From Candidatus Nomurabacteria bacterium (lineage in GTDB: Bacteria; Patescibacteriota; Minisyncoccia; Phycocordibacterales; UBA918), in NCBI GenBank assembly GCA_023898525.1, contig CP060227.1:957932-1021931 (forward strand): a stretch of DNA of 64,000 bases, in the 5' to 3' direction. Positions 9,537 to 50,600 of the stretch are shown piece by piece. The notes below the pieces were generated by a model. The model made no database searches and was not told where the DNA came from. It saw nothing but the letters and a program-made list of their open reading frames with translations. How positions within the stretch are numbered: position 1 is the first letter of the stretch; every line of letters starts with the position of its first letter. The translations under genes were made by a program, and so were the position numbers.

Positions 9537-10187
9537 ATGGATGATACCAAAATACCCGAAAAGTCTGGTTACGGAGTAGATGTGGCACTTAGGCGGGCGG
9601 ATGACTTGGATCGGAAAATGATTGGTCATGTGCTTAAAAAAGATGATTCAAAAGTGCTTGATCTTGGGTCTGGAGCCGGTGGACAGTCGGTACGGCTTTG
9701 TCTCGCAGGTGCTTCTGTAACGGCGGTTGATATAGATGATTACAGTGATGAATTTCTTAAGTTAAGGGAGGAAAACAATTTGTTCTTAGATCAGTTAAAG
9801 TTTATTCAAGGCGACATTAGAAATTTAAAGGAAATACTAAAAGGCGAGAAGTTTGATGATTGTTGTCTGCAGCGAACGATTCATTATTTGTCGTATCAAG
9901 AGGCAGAAAAGTTTTTAAAGGAATTGAGAGGAATGGTTAGTGATCGTTTGTATATTTCTGTGACCGGCTTAGGCACTGCGATTGGTGAAAAGTATCCAGA
10001 TAGAAAAAAGTCTGTTTCCGAACGCTTTGCCAAATTACCTGATGAAGAGGCGGAAATTTTTAGTGTGCAAGCGCCGGTTTGTTTATATACAGAAAAAGAA
10101 TTTATAGAGTTGTTGCAAAGTTCCGGCTGGCAAATTTTGGAATCTTCGGTGTCGCAGTTTGGTAATATCAAAGCGGTGTGCTTTTAA
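9537..10187 (+). CDS. Class I SAM-dependent methyltransferase
   Basis: Motif I VLDLGSGAGGQS and an acidic motif II (VTAVDID). Confidence 0.7.
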   Translation: MDDTKIPEKSGYGVDVALRRADDLDRKMIGHVLKKDDSKVLDLGSGAGGQSVRLCLAGASVTAVDIDDYSDEFLKLREENNLFLDQLKFIQGDIRNLKEILKGEKFDDCCLQRTIHYLSYQEAEKFLKELRGMVSDRLYISVTGLGTAIGEKYPDRKKSVSERFAKLPDEEAEIFSVQAPVCLYTEKEFIELLQSSGWQILESSVSQFGNIKAVCF

Positions 10188-10290
10188 TTATTACAATTTT
10201 TAGTAAATAAAGTAACCGAGGAACGACCTTTCTGTTGTCGCTCGGGCTCCTCTTTAAGGTCGCACCTTCGTTATTTTAATGTATAATTAA
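10184..10290 (+). mobile_element. Degenerate copy of MITE-1 (carries the internal repeat ...CTCCTCTTTAAGGTCGCACCTTCGTTATTTT)
   Basis: The 10213-10279 core aligns to 49298-49358 and to the reverse complement of 36820-36890. The left TIR is degenerate (gtgcttttaattatt). Confidence 0.35.
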
Positions 10291-10295
10291 AATAT

Positions 10296-10865
10296 ATGGG
10301 CTTAATTAGTTTGTTATTAGCAGCTGTTTTGGTTGTTTTTGGCGTGGTTTATATCTTTGATGATAGTGGTAGCACTGCTAGTAAGAATGTTTTAGAAGAA
10401 AGAGTAAATACTGAACAGACAGTTGATGATATGGTGAAGCAAGTGGTTCCAGATTATATATCGGAGCAGTCATCTGCTAAAGCCGGTAACAGAACTCTTG
10501 ACTTGAGTAACCAAGGTCTAGCTAAGGTGTCGATAGATATTTTTTCTAAAACCGAACTCACTACCCTCAACCTCTCGCATAATAATCTAAGTGGAGCTCT
10601 ACCAGCTGAGGTTAGGCATTTACAAAATTTGCAAGTTTTAGATTTGAGTGACAATAACTTTACCGGGGTACCAGCAGAAATTGGTCAGCTAACTAATCTT
10701 GAGTTGCTTGATCTTTCAAATAATCCTATTACCGGCTTACCATACGAATTAGGAAACTTAAGTAACCTAAAAACTTTGAATTTAAGTGGTACAAATTACT
10801 CCAAGCAAGATTTAGAAATTATAGTTGAAAAACTACCAGTGGATGTGAAAATCATTACTAATTAG
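10296..10865 (+). CDS. Leucine-rich-repeat protein with N-terminal membrane anchor
   Basis: N-terminal TM helix and six or more LRRs (LxxLxLSxNxLSG, LQVLDLSDNNFTG, LELLDLSNNPITG...). Confidence 0.75.
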   Translation: MGLISLLLAAVLVVFGVVYIFDDSGSTASKNVLEERVNTEQTVDDMVKQVVPDYISEQSSAKAGNRTLDLSNQGLAKVSIDIFSKTELTTLNLSHNNLSGALPAEVRHLQNLQVLDLSDNNFTGVPAEIGQLTNLELLDLSNNPITGLPYELGNLSNLKTLNLSGTNYSKQDLEIIVEKLPVDVKIITN

Positions 10866-15590: not shown

Positions 15591-15599
15591 AAGGATTTG

Positions 15600-25643: not shown

Positions 25644-26561
25644 ATGCATCAGCATCTTAATCAATCAGACCGTGCTTGTATAGCCGCTCTTTTAAGAAAA
25701 GAATATTCATACAGTGCTATAGCTAGGGTACTTGAAGTACACCCAAGCACTATTAGTCGCGAAGTGAGAAGGAATAGCAGCGGAAGCTATAGAGTCCATC
25801 ACGCACAGCGCTGTGCGAGATTGAGACGAGCAAACGCTCGGACAATGTATCGCACCATAGACACTAATGTGGTGCTAGAGCAGCACATCATCGATGGACT
25901 CAAACAAGATTGGTCGCCAGACCAAATAGTGGTGCGTTGCGGTGTTTCATCAGTGAGTTCAATCTATCGGTATTTAGAAAGACAGCCACACCTCAAGCAG
26001 TACCTGAGACGCGGTGGCAGACGCAGGCGAAAGTACGGTACCAAACGCATACCAAGCAGGTATCAAGCCAATAAACGTTCAATTCATGAGCGACCACCGA
26101 TACAGAGTATCGGTCATTGGGAGGGTGATACCGTGCTCGGGAGTGAACGGAAGCTACGTATTGTGACGTACGTGGACAAAGTCAGTGGCTATTTGATTGC
26201 CGCAAAGACTTCAGGTGGTGCCGACGCGATACATGCGCAAGCTAGAAAACAGTTTAGACATATGCCGTGCAACTCAATCACTTATGATAATGGAACCGAG
26301 TTTGCCTTGCATCAGATGATTGAGCGAGACTGCAATACCAAAGTGTATTTCGCCGACCCAGGAGCACCACATCAACGTGGTGCAAATGAGAACTGCAATG
26401 GACTCTTGCGGCAGTATTTCCCGAAAGGCACATCGTTTGCTACGATAACTAACAGCGACGTGCAGCGTGCCGTTCGAAGACTAAACAACCGACCGCGCAA
26501 ACGTCTCAACTATTTAACACCACGGGAATTCTTAGAAAAAGAAGGTGTGCATCTCAGGTGA
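25644..26561 (+). CDS. IS30-family transposase (copy 1)
   Basis: N-terminal HTH and DDE triad context (HWEGDTV, DNGTEF, ...E). 305 aa. Terminal inverted repeats not resolved. Confidence 0.85.
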   Translation: MHQHLNQSDRACIAALLRKEYSYSAIARVLEVHPSTISREVRRNSSGSYRVHHAQRCARLRRANARTMYRTIDTNVVLEQHIIDGLKQDWSPDQIVVRCGVSSVSSIYRYLERQPHLKQYLRRGGRRRRKYGTKRIPSRYQANKRSIHERPPIQSIGHWEGDTVLGSERKLRIVTYVDKVSGYLIAAKTSGGADAIHAQARKQFRHMPCNSITYDNGTEFALHQMIERDCNTKVYFADPGAPHQRGANENCNGLLRQYFPKGTSFATITNSDVQRAVRRLNNRPRKRLNYLTPREFLEKEGVHLR

Positions 26562-27493: not shown

Positions 27494-29854
27494 TCACCCC
27501 TGTTTCAATAACTCCACCGCCACTTCTAAAGTCAAATCTTCGGTTTTGATTTCGTCAGGGATACTGATGCGTTTGAAGCCTTTTTTGAGATAGCGGCCGG
27601 ATTTTGATTCGAAGACATTGACCAGCTTTCTGGTCGCTGGATTTACACCTAGCTCTTTAATCAAAGTTTCACCTTTACGGGTACCTTTTGGCTCTTTGTA
27701 GATTTCGAGCGCGCGTTCGTAGGTGACGGTGTAGGGGTTGTCATCACCTTTTAGAGAGCGAAAATCACCAGCGTGAGCCAAGTATGGACCGTACTGGCCG
27801 GTATTGGCTACGATAGGCTCACCAGTGGTAGGGTGCGCGCCTAGTTCGCGAGGCAGGGTTAGATACATCACTGCGTCTTTTAGAGTGACGTCTTCTGGCT
27901 TGACGCCAGCTGGTAGGGAAGCGCGTTTTGGTTTGGCTTGTTTTTTACCTTTTACTTTTTCCGGAGTTTCACCAAGTTGAACATAAGGGCCGAACTTTCC
28001 GTTCATAACAAAAATCGGTTCGCCAGTGTCTGGGTGGTTGCCGATTGGTTCGTCTGGTTTCATTTCGCTACCATCTATCAGTCTCGCTCCGTTACAATCA
28101 GGAAAGCGACTACAAGACAAGAAAGTTCCGGCTTTACCAAGCTTGATGATCATATCAGCACCACAATCCGGACAAGGAAAACCTTTTGGTCCTGGGCCGA
28201 GGTTGGTTAGTTTTTCGATATCTTCTTTATCGGCTACGGCCTTTTGGAATGGTTTATAAAAATCTTTTAGAGTCTTGGCGTACTCGCGGTCACCTTCGGC
28301 TATTTCGTCGAGCTCAGTTTCCATTTCACTGGTAAAGGTGTCGCTGATGTAGTCAGCAAAATGTTGCTCAAGGAATGAAGAAACCACGTCGCCGGTGTCG
28401 GTCGGAATCAGAGTACGACCTTCTTTGGTGACATAACCACGATCGGTAATAGTCTTCATAATAGAAGCGTAAGTAGATGGTCGGCCGATACCGCGTTTTT
28501 CGAGTTCTTTGATCAGACCAGCTTCGGTGTAGCGGTTTGGTGGTTGGGTTTGTTTGGCTTCGATGTCGATCTTCTTTAGATCAAGTGGGTCACCAGTGGT
28601 TAGTTTTGGCACTTCAGTATCTTCGCCACGAGCGGTAGTGTCGACCTTAAGCCAACCATCAAAAATAATGCGAGAACCGGTGACAGCAAAGTCAGGAATG
28701 GTTTCCTTAGCATTATCGATATTAGCGGTGATCTTGGTGCGTTTGGCGATCGCGTCAGACATTTGTGAGGCTACGGTACGTTTCCAGATTAATTCGTACA
28801 AAGCTTTTTGATCGGCGGTGCTACCGGCACTACGAATAGCAAAGTTGGTCGGGCGTACAGCTTCGTGGGCTTCTTGAGCGGATTTGCTCTTTGTTTTGTA
28901 TTTTCGTGGTTGAACGTAGTCTTTACCATACTCTTTGTTTAGTAGAGCTAAGATTTGTTTTTCTGCAACGGCGCTGATGGTCGTACTGTCGGTACGCATG
29001 TAGGTGATATGTCCGGCTTCGTAGAGTTTTTGCGCCGCGCCCATGGTGCGAGATGGCGCAAAACCTAGGCGGGTTGAAGCGACCTGTTGCAAAGTAGAAG
29101 TAGTGAAAGGTGGACGCGGCGTACGCTTGACCTCGGTCTCTTTAAGACCGGTAACTTTCCATTTGTTAGCTTCACCGACTTTTTTGATTCTTTTTGATTC
29201 TTTCTGCTCCTTTGGCTCAACCGAACAAAGGAAAGGAATGTTAGTCTTACCAGCTTTCATGTCAGCGGTCAGGGTGAAGTAGTCTTCTGGGATAAAGGCG
29301 CGAATTTCTCGCTCGCGTTCCATCACGATACGAAGAGCCGGGGATTGTACGCGACCAGCCGATAGACCGTAGCGAACTTTTTTCCAGATAAGGCCAGATA
29401 GGTCGTAGCCTACTAGGCGGTCGAGTACGCGACGGGCTTCCTGGGCTTCTTTTAGGTGGAGGTCAATTTTGCGTGGATGAGCGATGGCTTCTTTGACAGC
29501 ATCTTCGGTAATTTCGTTGAAAACCACTCGCTTGAGGTTTTTGTTTTCTTTTTTTATTAGTTCAGCCACGTGCCAAGCAATCGCCTCTCCTTCACGGTCG
29601 GGGTCGGAGGCGAGTAGTACGGCATCAGCTTTTTCGGCGGCGGCTTTTAATCCATCGATTACTTTGCCTTTACCGGGGGAAATAATGTAACGCGGTATAA
29701 AACCGCCCTCGATGTCGACGGCGTCAGTATTGCTTTTTGGTAGGTCGCGGACGTGTCCAATAGAGGACATAACCTTATAATCTTTGCCTAAATATTTTTC
29801 GATGGTCTTCGCCTTGGCTGGAGACTCAACGATTACTAAAGTTTGTTTACTCAT
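27494..29854 (-). CDS. topA: DNA topoisomerase I
   Basis: TOPRIM domain, catalytic Tyr region and C-terminal Cx2C zinc ribbons. 786 aa. Confidence 0.95.
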   Translation of the reverse strand: MSKQTLVIVESPAKAKTIEKYLGKDYKVMSSIGHVRDLPKSNTDAVDIEGGFIPRYIISPGKGKVIDGLKAAAEKADAVLLASDPDREGEAIAWHVAELIKKENKNLKRVVFNEITEDAVKEAIAHPRKIDLHLKEAQEARRVLDRLVGYDLSGLIWKKVRYGLSAGRVQSPALRIVMEREREIRAFIPEDYFTLTADMKAGKTNIPFLCSVEPKEQKESKRIKKVGEANKWKVTGLKETEVKRTPRPPFTTSTLQQVASTRLGFAPSRTMGAAQKLYEAGHITYMRTDSTTISAVAEKQILALLNKEYGKDYVQPRKYKTKSKSAQEAHEAVRPTNFAIRSAGSTADQKALYELIWKRTVASQMSDAIAKRTKITANIDNAKETIPDFAVTGSRIIFDGWLKVDTTARGEDTEVPKLTTGDPLDLKKIDIEAKQTQPPNRYTEAGLIKELEKRGIGRPSTYASIMKTITDRGYVTKEGRTLIPTDTGDVVSSFLEQHFADYISDTFTSEMETELDEIAEGDREYAKTLKDFYKPFQKAVADKEDIEKLTNLGPGPKGFPCPDCGADMIIKLGKAGTFLSCSRFPDCNGARLIDGSEMKPDEPIGNHPDTGEPIFVMNGKFGPYVQLGETPEKVKGKKQAKPKRASLPAGVKPEDVTLKDAVMYLTLPRELGAHPTTGEPIVANTGQYGPYLAHAGDFRSLKGDDNPYTVTYERALEIYKEPKGTRKGETLIKELGVNPATRKLVNVFESKSGRYLKKGFKRISIPDEIKTEDLTLEVAVELLKQG

Positions 29855-29880
29855 ATATTAGTCCTGTAACAAATACTAGG

Positions 29881-29917
29881 AATGAGGAATAAAGTCAACT
29901 GTTAGGGTGTTGAGGGG
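29881..29917. repeat. R38 direct repeat copy 1
   Basis: aatgaggaataaagtcaactgttagggtgttgagggg. A second copy lies at 30425-30460 (1 mismatch). Confidence 0.7.
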
Positions 29918-29996
29918 TGTTTAGAATAAATAAATATCGACATAATTTATTTGTTATGTTACCTTCTCTTCAGATTAACAAAGAGAGGTGATTAAA

Positions 29997-30149
29997 ATGG
30001 CAGAAGCAAGAATAGGTTGCAATAATGATTTAAAAAACCAAGGAAAAGATTGTTATTATGTGTCTCGTGAGGAGTATAGTTTTAAAGTGAATAGAAATGT
30101 TTCTAAATATTTACATAGTGATGGTATTTGGAGAAGGAGTACATCGTAA
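29997..30149 (+). CDS. Small protein (50 aa) with a strong RBS, followed by a 25-aa ORF (30159-30236) and a terminator (30262-30295)
   Basis: AGAGAGGTGA lies 7 nt upstream of the ATG. Protein: MAEARIGCNNDLKNQGKDCYYVSREEYSFKVNRNVSKYLHSDGIWRRSTS. Confidence 0.3.
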   Translation: MAEARIGCNNDLKNQGKDCYYVSREEYSFKVNRNVSKYLHSDGIWRRSTS

Positions 30150-30338
30150 TTATTAACGATGAAGAAATTTTTTCTGGTTACTTTCCGACTAGAGAAAGTG
30201 CTCAGAAAGCTCTTGATAAAGCATCATAAATTTTAATACTATTTTCATTTGATTTCACAAAGAAAGCCATGTTCGCTACATGGCTTTTATTTTTTACCGA
30301 TTCTACAACTCAGATACTAGATTTATAATGTGGTGAAT

Positions 30339-30421
30339 CATACTTTACATACCCCTGCATTTCCATATTCATCAGCAATATTCCAGCTTCTGCAGTTGGG
30401 ATATTTAGTTGTCTGATAAAG
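30339..30421. repeat. R85 direct repeat copy 1 (duplicate of the dprA 3' end)
   Basis: About 92% identical to 30882-30964. Contains the hairpin atattccag...ttgggatat. Confidence 0.7.
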
Positions 30422-30424
30422 AAA

Positions 30425-30460
30425 AATGAGGAATAAAGTCAACTGATAGGGTGTTGAGGG
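30425..30460. repeat. R38 direct repeat copy 2
   Basis: Lies immediately after R85 copy 1. Confidence 0.7.
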
Positions 30461-30550
30461 ATATCTAACATTATAAATTGTTGAAGTTCCTTGTTTAAAA
30501 AAACGCTTATATTCCGAATATTTGGATAATATAAGCGTTAGATATAAATA

Positions 30551-30865
30551 TTATTTTAGTTTAATTAATTTTATTCTTTTTCTCATTCTTTCTTCTTCCT
30601 CTTTACGTATATCTTTGTAATACTGACCGCTTTTTCCATAATCTAAGGCATTTGCACATAAAAAAAGAAAACCTAAAAATAAAATAATGAAAATAGTAAC
30701 CAAAAAACCTTCAAGTGAAATGGTTCCATTCATATTTCCCATTAAGTGAACGGGTGGTACTGGCATGGTTATACCCCTGTAGTTGTTTTTTATCAAAAGA
30801 ATCCGATTGGGTTTTAGCACAATTGTTCTAAAAAGTAAACAACCAATAAATCTCAAATTGTACAA
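30551..30865 (-). CDS. Hypothetical membrane protein (104 aa) inside cassette-like unit 2
   Basis: ORF with one TM helix and a basic C-terminus. Confidence 0.3.
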   Translation of the reverse strand: MYNLRFIGCLLFRTIVLKPNRILLIKNNYRGITMPVPPVHLMGNMNGTISLEGFLVTIFIILFLGFLFLCANALDYGKSGQYYKDIRKEEEERMRKRIKLIKLK

Positions 30866-31725
30866 TGATAGTAAGACATTTCACACTTTACATACCCCTG
30901 CATTTCCATATTCATCAGCAATATCCCAGCTTCCGCGACTGGGATATTTAGTTGTCTGATCAAGGTGTCGCGGTCGAGGGGTTCGTGGAGGAGTTTGATA
31001 ACTTTTTCCTCGAGTTCTGAAAGTTTTGGTCTAGCTTTTTGCTCGGCTTTTTTCTCTTCTATATTTAAGGCAAGGAGGATGTCGCTAGCGTCGGTGACCA
31101 TGGTGGCGCCGAGTTTTAGAAACTGGTGGGTACCATGAGAGTTTTTGGAAAAGATACTACCAGGGACAGCTAGTAGCTCGCGATTGTAGTCGACTGCCAT
31201 ACGGGCGGTGATTAGGGTGCCGGACTTGGCTCTGGCTTCTATTAGTATCGTAGCGTGTGCTAGACCGGCCATAAGACGGTTTCTTTGGGGGAAGGTCCAC
31301 GGGGCGGAGGCGGTTGTAGGTGGTAATTCCGACATCAGACCGCCGCCGCCCTCCACAATCCTCCTTGCCAAACTCTTATGACTGGCAGGATATAAAACTT
31401 TTTCATCCAGTCCACTACCAGGTACGGCTAGGGTGTACAGATTATTCTTGAGGGCGGCTTCGTGCGCTAGTCCATCTATGCCGAGCGCGAGGCCGGACAC
31501 AATCCCGACCGGGTAGCCAGCCAGTCCAGAAATAAGGTGCTCAACTACTTGCTTGCCGTAGGTGGTGTATTTTCGCGAGCCAACTACCGCTAGAAGCTTT
31601 AGTTCTCTCGGTGGCATTTGTCCTTGGTACCAAAGCTGCTTGGGCGGGTCGGGAATTTCGTGAAGAAGCCCAAGTCCTTTGTCTTTAAAATCACTGGGAT
31701 TTAGTTCTTTTATCTCACTTTCCAT
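30853..31725 (-). CDS. dprA: DNA-processing protein DprA
   Basis: Rossmann-like DprA core (AVVGSRKYTTYG...GLALGIDGLAHEAAL). Confidence 0.85.
   Translation of the reverse strand: MESEIKELNPSDFKDKGLGLLHEIPDPPKQLWYQGQMPPRELKLLAVVGSRKYTTYGKQVVEHLISGLAGYPVGIVSGLALGIDGLAHEAALKNNLYTLAVPGSGLDEKVLYPASHKSLARRIVEGGGGLMSELPPTTASAPWTFPQRNRLMAGLAHATILIEARAKSGTLITARMAVDYNRELLAVPGSIFSKNSHGTHQFLKLGATMVTDASDILLALNIEEKKAEQKARPKLSELEEKVIKLLHEPLDRDTLIRQLNIPVAEAGILLMNMEMQGYVKCEMSYYHCTI
30882..30964. repeat. R85 direct repeat copy 2 (overlaps the last 23 codons of dprA)
   Basis: The hairpin atatcccag-cttccgcga-ctgggatat lies within it. Confidence 0.7.
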
Positions 31726-35740: not shown

Positions 35741-36764
35741 CACCCTAATTGCACAATCCTTTGCACCCTAATTGCACAGGTCAAGATGACATACATACTG
35801 CTTTTGTATGTCACACAAACAAATAGGACCGGAAGACTGGCCGGTTATTTCACGTATGCTCAAAGCGGGATACTCAGGAGTGGAGATTGCGCACATTATC
35901 AACAAAGATCCAAGTGCGGTTAATAGACATATTAAAGCGTATGGTGGTCGGGATAGATACGATGCTCGCGAGGTTCGCAGAAAGAAAAAACAGGCACGTA
36001 TCATTGCTATGGAAGGTACTAGAATACTCAAAGGAGTATTATTACGAGAAGTGAAACGATTATTAAAACAACACTACTCACCGGAACAGATAGTCGGAGT
36101 ACGTGATGACATCTCTGCGAGCACTATCTACCGATACATTAACGAACGAGCTCCACACCTTAAACAATTTCTTCGTTCTCAGAAAGGCAAGTATCGGCGC
36201 AAACGAGGCACCAAAATACGTGAAAAAGTTCGTGAAAGAGCCAAGAAACGTCGTATTGATGAACGACCGCCCATTATTGAACGTCGCTCCCGTTTGGGAG
36301 ATTGGGAGGGAGATACTATGCTGGGAAGAGACAAACGAGTACGTATTGTCACCTTCGTTGATCGCAGAAGCGGGTATCTAATTGCGTATCTTCTGCCAAA
36401 ATTAAATGCTACTTTACTCACTAAACTGGCGGTGGAAAAATTCAGGCGTATACCCAAAAACAAACGAAAGACCGCTACCTTTGATAACGGTACCGAGTTC
36501 AGTGACTGGGAACGGTTTGAGAAACAAACGAGTATGACTGTGTACTTTGCTTATCCATACCACTCTTGGGAGCGTGGTACCAATGAAAATACTAACGGGC
36601 TACTTCGACAATATTTTCCGAAAGACTTGGATTTCAACACCATTACTCCACAAGAACTTTCTGAAGCGGTTCGTCGTATAAATCATCGTCCTAGAAAGAG
36701 ACATAATTTCAAGTCTCCACATCAGATATTTTGGAAGTGATGGTCTGTGCAATTAGGGTGGTGA
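35741..36764 (+). mobile_element. IS30-family insertion sequence (copy 2) with identifiable inverted repeats
   Basis: The left IR caccctaattgcaca (duplicated in tandem at 35741 and 35763) pairs with the right IR tgtgcaattagggtg (36749-36763). The transposase ORF lies between them. Confidence 0.65.
35808..36740 (+). CDS. IS30-family transposase (copy 2, distinct sequence from copy 1)
   Basis: DDE context DWEGDTM, DNGTEF and a C-terminal E. 310 aa. Confidence 0.85.
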   Translation: MSHKQIGPEDWPVISRMLKAGYSGVEIAHIINKDPSAVNRHIKAYGGRDRYDAREVRRKKKQARIIAMEGTRILKGVLLREVKRLLKQHYSPEQIVGVRDDISASTIYRYINERAPHLKQFLRSQKGKYRRKRGTKIREKVRERAKKRRIDERPPIIERRSRLGDWEGDTMLGRDKRVRIVTFVDRRSGYLIAYLLPKLNATLLTKLAVEKFRRIPKNKRKTATFDNGTEFSDWERFEKQTSMTVYFAYPYHSWERGTNENTNGLLRQYFPKDLDFNTITPQELSEAVRRINHRPRKRHNFKSPHQIFWK

Positions 36765-45930: not shown

Positions 45931-46005
45931 TGCCGGATCGTTTGGTAGTAGGACTCCGTAAAACAGTCTCCCAGACTGTTTTACCTAGTACTGTCTATCG
46001 GTTTT
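45931..46005 (+). pseudogene. Degenerate tRNA-Gln-like copy in which hairpin H replaces the anticodon arm
   Basis: tgccggatcgtttggtagtaggac + CCGTAAAACAGTCTCCCAGACTGTTTTACCTAGT + actgtctatcggttttgattgg. The T-arm is degenerate. Confidence 0.55.
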
Positions 46006-46055
46006 GATTGGTTGAAATAAACCATGAGCAAATAATAAATCACAACAAACAACAT

Positions 46056-46075
46056 TGCCGGATCGTCTAATGGTA
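46056..46075 (+). other. 5'-half fragment (20 nt) of tRNA-Gln
   Basis: tgccggatcgtctaatggta is identical to 46141-46160. Confidence 0.7.
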
Positions 46076-46103
46076 TGTGAACATACAAACTGCGTTCGTA
46101 CGG

Positions 46104-46244
46104 AAACAAAAGAGGTATTTTAAATATTCATGTCTATCGCTGCCGGATCGTCTAATGGTAGGACTACGGTTTCTGGTACCGTCTATCGGGGTTCGAGTCC
46201 CTGTCCGGCAGCGATGGTCGGGAATTAAAATACCTCTTTTGTTT
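46104..46244. repeat. Perfect 20-bp inverted repeats bracketing the intact tRNA-Gln
   Basis: aaacaaaagaggtattttaa (46104-46123) and ttaaaatacctcttttgttt (46225-46244). Confidence 0.8.
46141..46211 (+). tRNA. tRNA-Gln(CTG)
   Basis: Manual fold: acceptor TGCCGGA/TCCGGCA, anticodon stem ACGGT/ACCGT, loop TTCTGGT, T-arm CGGGG-TTCGAGT-CCCTG. Confidence 0.8.
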
Positions 46245-46270
46245 TTCTCACTCACATTGTTTGTTGTTTT

Positions 46271-46342
46271 AGGACTCCGTAAAACAGTCTCCCAGACTTT
46301 TACCTAGTACCGTCTATCGGGGTTCGAGTCCCTGTCCGGCAG
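46271..46342 (+). pseudogene. 3' portion of a tRNA-Gln-like gene carrying hairpin H followed by an exact copy of the tRNA-Gln 3' 34 nt
   Basis: aggac + hairpin H (46279-46303) + accgtctatcggggttcgagtccctgtccggcag, identical to 46178-46211. Confidence 0.6.
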
Positions 46343-46429
46343 CAAATGTAAAAAGAATAGCTTCTACCTTATTTTTGGAAGTTTTTATATGGTCTATGTA
46401 CAAAATTATTGTGATAAACTGATATTGCT

Positions 46430-47410
46430 ATGCCAAAAAAGAAAGAGATTGGTCCAATGGTCATTTACCAAACAAAGTCTGGTGCGCTTGAATTGCGTGG
46501 GGATGCGAAGAAAGAGACTTTGTGGGCGACTCAAGCTCAGATTGCACAAGCATTTGATGTTGATGTACGTACTATAAACGAGCATATAAAAAATATTTAT
46601 AAGACTGAGGAGCTGTTTGAGAAGTCAACTATCCGGAAATTCCGGATAGTTCAAACTGAAGGGAAGCGTACGGTTAAACGTGAAATGAATCACTATAATC
46701 TAGATATGATTATTTCGGTTGGTTATCGAGTAAACAGTAAGAAGGCGACTCAATTTCGTCAATGGTCCACCAAGACACTTCGTGAACATATTGTCAAGGG
46801 TTACACTATAAATCGTAAGCGAATAGGACATAATTACGATATTTTTATGAAGGCTGTAGCGGACGTTCAGGCACTACTACCTGAACATGTCACTCTTGAC
46901 CCTAAGACAGTACTTGAACTTATTAAGGAGTTTGCTTCAACGTGGGTTTCACTTGATGCATATGACAAAGAATCTCTAGAAATCAAAGGGGTGACCAAAA
47001 AGCGTGTGACGCTTGTGGGTGCGGATTTACGCAATGCGATCAATGAGCTTAAGTACGAACTTGTGCGTAAAGGTGAGGCTGCTGATATATTTGCGTCTGA
47101 ACGTAGAGAGGGAGATGTGGAAGGTATTGTTGGAAATGTTATGCAGTCTTTTGATGGAAAGTTCGTATATTCTACAGTAGAAGAAAAAGCTGCTCATCTT
47201 CTATATTTTATGGTCAAGAATCACCCATTCATCGACGGAAATAAAAGGTCTGGTGCTTTTGCGTTTGTATGGTTTCTTAGAAAGACAGGTGTACGTGGAG
47301 CTAAAAATATAAACCCAGCAGCCCTCACAACCCTAACTCTTCTTATTGCAGAAAGTGATCCAAAGCAAAAGGATCAAATTGTTGCTTTGGTAACTCAAAT
47401 GTTGAAGTAG
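46430..47410 (+). CDS. RhuM-family N-terminal domain fused to a Fic/Doc domain
   Basis: Fic motif HPFIDGNKRSG. The N-terminal region is RhuM-like (…NHYNLDMIISVGYRVNS…). Confidence 0.75.
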   Translation: MPKKKEIGPMVIYQTKSGALELRGDAKKETLWATQAQIAQAFDVDVRTINEHIKNIYKTEELFEKSTIRKFRIVQTEGKRTVKREMNHYNLDMIISVGYRVNSKKATQFRQWSTKTLREHIVKGYTINRKRIGHNYDIFMKAVADVQALLPEHVTLDPKTVLELIKEFASTWVSLDAYDKESLEIKGVTKKRVTLVGADLRNAINELKYELVRKGEAADIFASERREGDVEGIVGNVMQSFDGKFVYSTVEEKAAHLLYFMVKNHPFIDGNKRSGAFAFVWFLRKTGVRGAKNINPAALTTLTLLIAESDPKQKDQIVALVTQMLK

Positions 47411-48199: not shown

Positions 48200-48325
48200 C
48201 CTAGGCTGGACCTCGTGGTAAATACTTGGTTTGTGAGGATTACGGAGCGATAAGGATTGTTGATGTTGGGGTTTGAGGGTGTTTGGCGAAAATGGTGGCT
48301 GAACCTGTTTCTGTGACCCCATTAC
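48200..48325 (+). repeat. Intergenic repeat B copy 1
   Basis: ...GGTTTGTGAGGATTACGGAGCGATAAGGATTGTTGATGTTGGGGTTTGAGGGTGTTTGGCGAAAATGGTGGCTGA... preceded by a half-palindrome cctaggctggacctcg. Confidence 0.65.
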
Positions 48326-49149: not shown

Positions 49150-49256
49150 CGAGGTCCATCCTAGGGGTTCCCCCAGGATGGACCTCGGGGTCTGTAAGGA
49201 TAATGGAGCGATAAGGATTGTTGGTGCTGGGGTTTGAGGGTGGGTGATGTAGCCGT
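49150..49256 (+). repeat. Intergenic repeat B copy 2 (3' part replaced by a MITE insertion)
   Basis: Perfect palindrome cgaggtccatcctagggg-ttc-ccccaggatggacctcgg followed by GGAGCGATAAGGATTGTTGGTGCTGGGGTTTGAGGGTG. Confidence 0.65.
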
Positions 49257-49389
49257 GGTACCTGTGCTAATTAATTTCTTTAGAAAATAACTGAGGAACC
49301 ACCTTTTCCCGTTGCTCTCACCACTCCTCTTTAAGGTCGCACCTCCGTTATTTTCTTTATTTTACTTGATTTTAATTAGCACAGGTGCC
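49257..49389 (+). mobile_element. MITE-1 (133 bp) with 18-bp terminal inverted repeats GGTACCTGTGCTAATTAA / TTAATTAGCACAGGTGCC
   Basis: Perfect TIRs. The internal core 49298-49358 is shared with 10213-10279 and with 36820-36890 (inverted). Inserted into repeat B copy 2. Confidence 0.6.
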
Positions 49390-50461: not shown

Positions 50462-50600
50462 TCCCGAGGGTAACCCTCGGGATAGGTTTGGTTTGTGAAG
50501 AAGGTGGAGCGATAAGGATTGTTGATGCTGGGGTTTGAGGGTGGTTGGTGAAAATGGTGGCTGACCCCATTTACTCATTTACTCATTTACTCATTTACTG
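50462..50600 (+). repeat. Intergenic repeat B copy 3 plus CATTTACT tandem repeats (x4)
   Basis: Palindrome cccgagggt-aa-ccctcggg then ...GGAGCGATAAGGATTGTTGATGCTGGGGTTTGAGGGTGGTTGGTGAAAATGGTGGCTGACCCC, followed by catttactcatttactcatttact. Confidence 0.65.

Follow-up and report, generated by a model that had tools for sequence, protein, structure and literature searches.

Genomes of the Candidate Phyla Radiation (CPR/Patescibacteria) are tiny and contain few recognizable mobile elements, and to our knowledge the gain of accessory genes in this group is poorly documented. Pangenome comparisons of bacteria gave rise to the concept of horizontal-transfer hotspots between conserved core genes, and tandem accretion at the 3' end of a gene is exemplified by the cis-mobilizable elements (CIMEs) adjoining the integrative and conjugative elements (ICEs) ICESt1/ICESt3 at fda. 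DprA is a transformation-specific RecA loader, and the classical products of homology-facilitated illegitimate recombination (HFIR) are usually insertion-deletions, not anchor duplications. One-sided homologous anchoring of the HFIR type is described for Acinetobacter and S. pneumoniae (PMC3240628). Transformation can also generate merodiploids of 100-900 kb, formed between pre-existing repeats (PMC3784515), competence genes have been noted in Patescibacteria (PMC12455944), and tycheposon arrays carry partial tRNA copies (bioRxiv 10.1101/2020.12.28.424599). Here we describe a 64,000-nucleotide (nt) stretch of a Candidatus Nomurabacteria bacterium genome (contig CP060227.1; the window), in which two small modules lie between the core genes dprA and topA, separated from each other by a truncated copy of the topA promoter and a displaced dprA 3' end.

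The dprA-topA spacer is a hotspot at which genes have been inserted repeatedly, and not a mobile element of a new kind. As at other core-gene hotspots, the accessory genes enclosed by dprA and topA are different ones in almost all close relatives, signs of recombination are seen in the flanks, and most of the cargo is without known function. Unlike those hotspots, it is very small (0.2-2.5 kb, and >5 kb in one relative, L004), lies in a streamlined CPR genome, and has explicit duplicated-flank scars, which are unusual for such sites. The locus is a further example of a known phenomenon, a transfer hotspot with accretion scars, in an understudied lineage. As its cause we favor, with moderate confidence, homology-anchored plus illegitimate recombination at the hotspot, probably after DNA uptake. 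Such an origin resembles HFIR in that one border would be homologous and the other a new joint between apparently unrelated sequences, a dedicated recombinase is not required, the host encodes DprA, and the target region can end up partly duplicated. It differs in that the anchor is duplicated at the dprA locus. Compared with the published merodiploids, the duplication here is only 0.5 kb and has a new joint.

Two repeats organize the locus: R38, of 36 nt, and R85, of 83 nt. The features are listed below in window coordinates, with lengths in amino acids (aa) for genes and open reading frames (ORFs) and with the guanine-plus-cytosine (GC) content of each module.

27494-29854, minus strand: topA (786 aa), an ORF with Pfam Toprim/Topoisom_bac annotation; the right-hand core gene of the hotspot in the dprA reading direction.
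29866-29916, minus strand: predicted intact topA promoter, made of R38(1) at 29881-29916 followed by the conserved block CCTAGTATTTGTTAC at 29866-29880.
29917-30309, plus strand: module 1 (X1), 393 nt, GC 29.5%, transcribed towards dprA as predicted.
29997-30149, plus strand: 50-aa ORF of X1, with an AGGTGA ribosome-binding site.
30128-30229, plus strand: possible 33-aa ORF of X1, ORF only.
30262-30288, plus strand: predicted intrinsic terminator of X1, fold z -5.5.
30310-30421, minus strand: displaced dprA 3' end (pseudo-copy), with R85(1) at 30339-30421, a native-type tail at 30313-30338 (..IRQLNIPTAEAGILLMNMEMQGYVKYDSPHYKSSI, then stop) and the stop codon at 30310-30312.
30422-30424, no strand assigned: 3-nt joint between R85(1) and R38(2), AAA on the plus strand; a novel, probably illegitimate junction.
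30425-30460, minus strand: R38(2), truncated copy of the topA promoter that lacks the conserved CCTAGTATTTGTTAC block.
30461-30852, minus strand: module 2 (X2), 392 nt, GC 27.6%, on the dprA strand.
30502-30539, minus strand: predicted intrinsic terminator of X2, z -4.2, with a U-run at 30495-30501.
30551-30766, minus strand: 71-aa predicted membrane ORF of X2, called in the source record.
30853-30881, minus strand: tail 2 of the live dprA (CEMSYYHCTI, then stop), divergent but family-type.
30882-30964, minus strand: R85(2), within dprA, codons 254-282.
30853-31725, minus strand: dprA (290 aa), an ORF with Pfam DNA_processg_A and DprA_WH.

Scanning a single genome per species yielded 56 dprA loci, and the 42 relatives with topA downstream were used for spacer lengths. 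The spacer is at most 120 nt in 24 of the 42, mostly 57-80 nt, and on this distribution we take a short dprA-topA spacer to be the ancestral state. The modules had been regarded in a preliminary description as gained DNA, a view that the short spacers support together with the closest relatives, which have other inserts at the same place. That description had proposed a comparison of the topA-dprA region among relatives, and none of them carries both modules in the same arrangement. Different inserts are found at the loci labelled L002, L003, L004, L030, L062, L065 and L066, with at least 12 distinct modules across 8 close relatives. The same two core genes bracket this varied content, and other relatives retain the empty state.

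Among these loci, L002 encodes a DprA 90% identical to that of the window. R85 and R38 each occur there once, accompanied by an unrelated insert of 1.04 kb that contains a membrane ORF of 301 aa; homology between L002 and the window stops at the tail-side end of R85 and restarts where R38 begins. Downstream of dprA in L004 are three co-oriented single-gene cassettes, encoding a Fic protein, a 248-aa ORF and a 223-aa ORF, each trailed by a partial dprA 3' copy (59, 18 and 41 nt) that ends at the stop codon. L030 has one extra dprA 3' copy, of 52 nt, which follows a 131-aa membrane ORF and again ends at the stop codon. A degenerate dprA-end pattern run on metagenomes returned seven loci, three of them informative (L062, L065 and L066). 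L066, a metagenome fragment, has the Fic cassette of L004 with the same joint, then the module that follows the remnant in L030, and further on a diverged full copy of the topA promoter before a homologue of the L030 membrane gene. This promoter copy, together with the dprA copies, indicates that both flanks of the hotspot get duplicated. Partial flank copies thus appear to arise repeatedly in the subclade, with cassettes in differing combinations. Outside the subclade, the other relatives have no partial dprA copy; a 13-nt match in L005 (E 0.008), about 2.1 kb beyond the topA start, is probably due to chance.

Other features were seen at the relatives' loci. Three Kaiserbacteria-type loci (L014 5831-6308, L015 2835-3378 and L020 5877-6328) have, in the same spacer, a conserved 131-aa ORF without a Pfam match, flanked by 23-32-nt copies of the palindrome CTAAACCTACCTGTWWACAGGTA about 420 nt apart; this could be a different kind of cassette at the same hotspot, with the palindromes as operator sites. 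The dprA of L030 (5001-5875, Parcubacteria OLB19) seems frameshifted: its protein match ends at residue 204, there is an in-frame stop at 5645, and the 3' end goes on in another frame, as in a pseudogene or a sequencing error. L004 has a gene with a TfoX_N domain, which we take to be a family known from competence regulators, at 3197-3526, 1.5 kb upstream of dprA. Further down the L004 island, at 9606-10612, two 100% identical 49-nt repeats lie 958 nt apart along with four copies of TGAATAAAGTGGAGAA, which suggests a second repeat-bounded cassette series. We rejected a link between the RhuM/Fic gene of the window and the L004 Fic cassette, which have only the Fic motif in common.

Each repeat of the locus occurs exactly twice in the 64 kb, in agreement with the preliminary layout of two modules between topA and dprA with paired R38 and R85. 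The R38 copies (29881-29916 and 30425-30460) are identical at 35 of 36 positions and are the only two matches at up to 3 mismatches; the R85 copies (30339-30421 and 30882-30964) are identical at about 78 of 83, and a 40-nt core of R85 has the same two matches, where the expected number for either repeat is 0 and shuffles gave none. A repeat search lengthens the R85 pair to 118 nt at 81% identity (30304-30421 and 30847-30964). Copies of R38 are offset by 544 nt and those of R85 by 543 nt. The two units are not homologous over their whole length and match at their ends only, over 36 nt and about 118 nt. The interiors had been called unrelated, and this held: in-register identity is 32.5%, compared with 28.9 +/- 2.2% at other offsets, and local alignments on both strands score equal to shuffles. 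We also looked for hidden interior homology as purine/pyrimidine, other two-class, transition-only and base-specific patterns (of the kind left by diversity-generating retroelements), and all were nonsignificant.

R85 corresponds to codons 254-282 of the 290 in dprA, within the DprA winged-helix domain (Pfam residues 228-280). It ends nine codons before the stop codon and does not lie within the last 23 codons, where it had been placed. Copy 1 stays in frame for nine further codons and stops at the same relative position as the live gene, ending ...GYVKYDSPHYKSSI and stop vs ...GYVKCEMSYYHCTI and stop in dprA (in a longer readout, ...IPTAEAGILLMNMEMQGYVKYDSPHYKSSI and stop for the distal copy vs ...IPVAEAGILLMNMEMQGYVKCEMSYYHCTI and stop for the live gene). 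Past R85, homology between the copies is weak across both tails (18 of 33 nt), up to the in-register stop codon. The tails of dprA in relatives read KYESPHYRSLV and stop, KYDSPYYRCM.. and similar, and that of copy 1 is of the same type. At the nucleotide level, dprA of the relatives aligns with copy 1 to 15 nt short of the stop codon, and with the live copy 2 only to the end of R85. Since the reading frame of the distal copy stays open through a native-type tail up to its stop codon, we identify this copy as the displaced dprA 3' end, which confirms the duplication of the gene end that the preliminary description had reported. This displaced end is probably untranslated.

Tail 2 of the live gene fits the family pattern E-x3-Y-x3-[ILV]-stop and is no different in length, indicating that it came from a diverged source and not from random sequence; the incoming DNA restores the dprA 3' end. 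The copies diverge in a mosaic fashion: the upstream 40 nt have 5 differences, the central 41 nt none and the 33-nt tail 15. The alleles differ in affinity, with copy 1 resembling L062 and copy 2 resembling L002. Such a distribution is unlike the clock-like decay expected of a duplicate made in place. A search with the DprA C terminus for a donor with tail 2 returned no candidates, and exact look-ups of the hypothetical single-module DprA variants found them absent.

R85(2) also holds a perfect palindrome of 9-10 bp (ATATCCCAG-N9-CTGGGATAT, 30920-30948), inside the dprA coding sequence, whose single-strand DNA fold has a z of about -3. It is present in L002 too (5770-5800), weakened in copy 1, and absent from L003, L004 and L030. 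Being lineage-specific, it was ruled out as an attC-like or dif-like site.

R38 consists of 19 nt of upstream sequence, a -35 element TTGACT (29893-29898 in R38(1)) and 12 nt of spacer. Directly before topA, 33 of the 43 relatives that have topA downstream carry TTGACA-N14-TAGTATTT, and from this alignment R38 is predicted to be the upstream half of the conserved host topA promoter; it is not the left boundary of an element, as first proposed. In R38(1), the CCTAGTATTTGTTAC block and the start codon of topA come next. R38(2) breaks off at the boundary of that block and is followed by three bases and then R85(1), so that promoter spacer ending ...CTCATT is joined via TTT to dprA codon 254. With the conserved -10-proximal block missing, R38(2) is probably inactive, and topA would be driven by the complete distal promoter copy only. 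Between the modules lies a composite sequence, in which a shortened topA promoter is fused to the displaced 3' end of dprA. Searches of JGI metagenomes for the R38/R85 junction gave no match. Sequence to the left of R38(1) that resembles the end of R85 was considered and set aside as a weak, probably chance AT-rich likeness to the promoter -10 block.

The modules themselves have a GC content of 28-30%, compared with 48-50% in the flanking genes. The terminator of the small operon first described in module 1 was confirmed on the plus strand at 30262-30288; the second ORF of that operon, of 33 aa, is a possible one. For module 2, the 104-aa membrane ORF first called starts at a TTG inside dprA, and the 71-aa ORF is the likelier gene; no terminator separates it from dprA. 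The 71-aa product matched only itself among 5.8 billion and 1.84 billion proteins. The 50-aa product had no homologue among 5.8 billion proteins, and its sole match was an identical copy on a Logan contig. There was no Pfam match for the small module ORFs, and Rfam, at the gathering threshold over the window and permissively over the locus, gave only tRNAs elsewhere and two chance-level matches. Phage and plasmid collections contained no match to the modules. Both cargo ORFs are thus orphans with predicted terminators of their own, and the modules are presumably expressed.

The flanks carry a further signal. Over ~190 nt at the end of dprA and ~240 nt at the start of topA, the window and L002 are 95-97% identical, whereas identity further away is 80-90%; the rise at the dprA end has a P of about 6e-5. 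The same comparison with six other relatives showed no such rise. A homologous border is visible in the R85 allele mosaicism together with this identity tract next to the spacer. We read the R38(2)-R85(1) pair, which runs from a topA promoter fragment into dprA codon 254 and through the native-type tail to the stop codon, as the scar of recombination.

The order of events is a reconstruction from these sequences. The resident genome would have had the arrangement dprA, tail 1, X1, topA promoter, and the incoming DNA, from a related strain, the arrangement dprA 3' end, tail 2, X2, topA promoter; the donor would have been a close relative with an X2 insert. One exchange would have been homologous, in or upstream of R85. 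The other end of the donor DNA, broken 12 nt past the promoter -35 element, would have undergone illegitimate joining to codon 254 of the resident dprA. The outcome would be identical if a 543-bp circle with the joint on it had integrated through one crossover in R85. Either way, the live dprA would end in an imported tail and its old 3' end would be stranded downstream. RecA-type recombination between the R85 copies could then delete or re-insert unit 2, in which case no dedicated recombinase would be needed for its loss or gain. Ordinary homologous recombination could also carry cassettes that lie between flank copies into naive loci. On this favored reading, the spacer of this Paceibacteria (CPR) lineage would have received its two AT-rich, orphan-gene modules independently.

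Several observations weigh against this reconstruction. No strain with X2 alone or X1 alone was found in JGI metagenomes, protein searches or exact variant look-ups, and both assemblies carrying this dprA may derive from the same data. The two unrelated interiors are nearly equal in length, 393 and 392 nt, one base apart; the chance of this is estimated at ~0.3-1% from the spread of insert sizes in relatives, and such near-equality is predicted by none of the models considered. Finally, the dprA copies in L004 and L030 start just 7-23 nt past the stop codon of the cassette ORF, which is tidier than random joints would be and keeps a site-specific mechanism alive.

Site-specific accretion is the main rival. 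It holds that the dprA 3' end is an attB site into which small integrase-less cassettes or decayed elements were inserted serially by a tyrosine or serine recombinase encoded elsewhere, duplicating the att core each time, as in CIME/ICE accretion or tycheposon arrays. We regard it as possible but unlikely. The likeness to those systems is real: serial inserts at one gene end each have a partial copy of that end, newer inserts push older ones outward, and some units are without an integrase. Direct repeats of a gene 3' end flank the inserted DNA in the window, and the incoming copy restores a family-type C terminus. Also in favor are the tight, co-oriented, single-gene cassettes of L004, each with its dprA copy ending exactly at the stop codon, the identical Fic-cassette joint in L004 and L066 before different downstream DNA, and the fold of the R85(2) palindrome, although that palindrome is absent from three of the relatives' loci. 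The modules had been said to encode no recombinase, and we found none in or near them: the Pfam annotation of called genes (window ~1-54 kb) records no tyrosine or serine recombinase family, with IS30-like rve transposases as the only entries of a related function, and a scan of the larger ORFs lying up to ~5 kb from dprA in L004 likewise gave none. Moreover, the upstream extent of the dprA copies differs per event (112, 59, 52, 41 and 18 nt). All four L004 copies have just one core in common, the last 17 nt of dprA, a region only about 7/15 identical between the two window copies, which places the window exchange elsewhere, in R85. The window has instead a 41-nt identical block within R85 and tails that match at 18 of 33 positions, not an identical core shared at a fixed target position. 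Its joint contains a host topA promoter fragment and not an element arm, and its units, of 0.5-1 kb with one or two orphan genes, also set the locus apart from CIMEs and tycheposons, as do the varying repeat lengths and exchange position. Site-specific integration, which had been implied at first, therefore fares poorly against the variable copy extents, the lack of a core in common with L004 and a joint that is a novel fusion of host-type sequences; one homologous plus one illegitimate exchange fits better than an att site with an integrase in trans. Integron arrays share with L004 the co-oriented single-ORF cassettes each trailed by a repeat. Unlike integrons, the locus has no Phage_integrase match in the window annotation and no attI or attC-type hairpin, and its repeats are dprA coding fragments; the R38-R85 joint and the L004 joint have single-strand z values of -0.2 to -1.35. 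Transposons, miniature inverted-repeat transposable elements and insertion sequences (IS) make fixed-length target duplications, and here the duplicated length varies from 18 to 112 nt; the repeat search found no terminal inverted repeats bounding either module.

The flank copies may act as portable homology arms for an integrase-free exchange of cassettes, or an unrecognized recombinase may act in trans; taken together, we consider these two possible but unlikely. Alternatively, the layout could have arisen in place, by a 543-bp tandem duplication from dprA codon 254 to the topA promoter spacer and subsequent replacement of the tail and interior of one unit through homologous recombination with a strain that had a different insert. 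The head-to-tail layout with its near-identical periods (544 and 543 nt), the R38/R85 joint, which is the novel junction expected of a tandem duplication, and the recombination-tract signs in the flanks all suit this sequence of steps. We nevertheless find it doubtful, as two rare events are required where one suffices, the replacing insert must match the old length within 1 nt by chance, there is no residual similarity between the interiors, and the dprA copies of other lengths in L004, L030 and L066 are left unexplained. An assembly artefact, in which two co-existing single-module strains were concatenated (false haplotypic duplication), is very improbable. The layout, flank, allele A, part of the right flank, then part of the left flank, allele B, flank, has the shape of such errors, and the source, the Paceibacteria/'Nomurabacteria' assembly GCA_020632175.1, was assembled from a metagenome. 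In SRR12358676, one Logan contig matches window 29024-30371 without a difference and breaks where a k=31 graph would branch between the R85 variants, exactly 30 nt past the T/C variant that distinguishes the copies; this indicates that both variants are present in the SRR12358676 reads and implies no linkage between them. However, part of the joint is absent from both flanks, and R85(1) lacks the k-1 bases of continuation into dprA that a graph bubble would require, which makes a graph artefact unlikely. In addition, exact stretches shared by the R38 copies are at most 21 nt long, so no k=31 cycle would form, and a 1,087,875-bp contig is on record with the identical DprA and TopA. Structures of a similar kind in L004, L030 and L066, three assemblies independent of one another, argue for a biological phenomenon.

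Some other mobile-element and repeat features of the window are recorded here. Two confirmed IS30-like transposases (HTH_38 plus rve; 25644-26561 and 35808-36740, both plus strand) bracket topA-dprA-serS, ~10 kb apart, and a 310-aa ORF at 1130-2062 (minus strand) is assumed to be a third copy; no link between the IS30-like transposases and the modules was found. The tRNA-Gln(CTG) locus (45931-46343) has several partial copies around the real tRNA at 46141-46212. A variant tRNA-like copy at 45931-46010 contains an additional hairpin (AAAACAGTCT-CCC-AGACTGTTTT), and its 3' end is decayed. There are also a 20-nt 5' piece (46057-46076) and a 3' piece (46270-46343) that has this hairpin too and whose T-arm and acceptor are nearly perfect; these two fragments would make one variant gene, split by 193 nt containing the real tRNA. 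That stretch is flanked by inverted repeats (46107-46126 and 46226-46245), and the RhuM/Fic gene is next, at 46430-47410. Like the dprA locus, it combines a small module with a partial copy of the end of a conserved gene. Three copies of an 85-nt intergenic repeat (48226-48310, 49187-49271 and 50488-50572; 65-87% identical) lie 961 and 1301 nt apart between small genes. A 127-nt direct repeat (3778-3904 and 4343-4469, 96% identical) has 35-nt relatives at 15593 and 18374; these repeats have a common motif, GGACTTGGTCACTCTCATGGATATTTATTTCGTCT, all adjoin tRNA genes, and may represent a shared tRNA-flanking element or promoter.

For annotation, the last 10 residues of the live DprA appear to be imported, and a pseudo 3' end and a presumably dead promoter copy lie in the spacer. 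If the flank copies do serve as portable arms, bracketed cassettes would be copied into naive dprA-topA loci by DNA uptake and RecA alone, and cassette exchange in the CPR would be centred on the gene for a transformation-specific recombination mediator; if a recombinase acts in trans, it would target the dprA end and build integron-like arrays as in L004. Whichever applies, the dprA-topA locus is a sequence-resolved example of a very small hotspot that collects orphan-gene modules and leaves duplicated-flank scars. Under the favored reading, homology-anchored capture after DNA uptake, the scars, a displaced dprA end and a truncated topA promoter, would record single acquisition events, and they could be searched for systematically to gauge recombination-driven gene gain in uncultured lineages.

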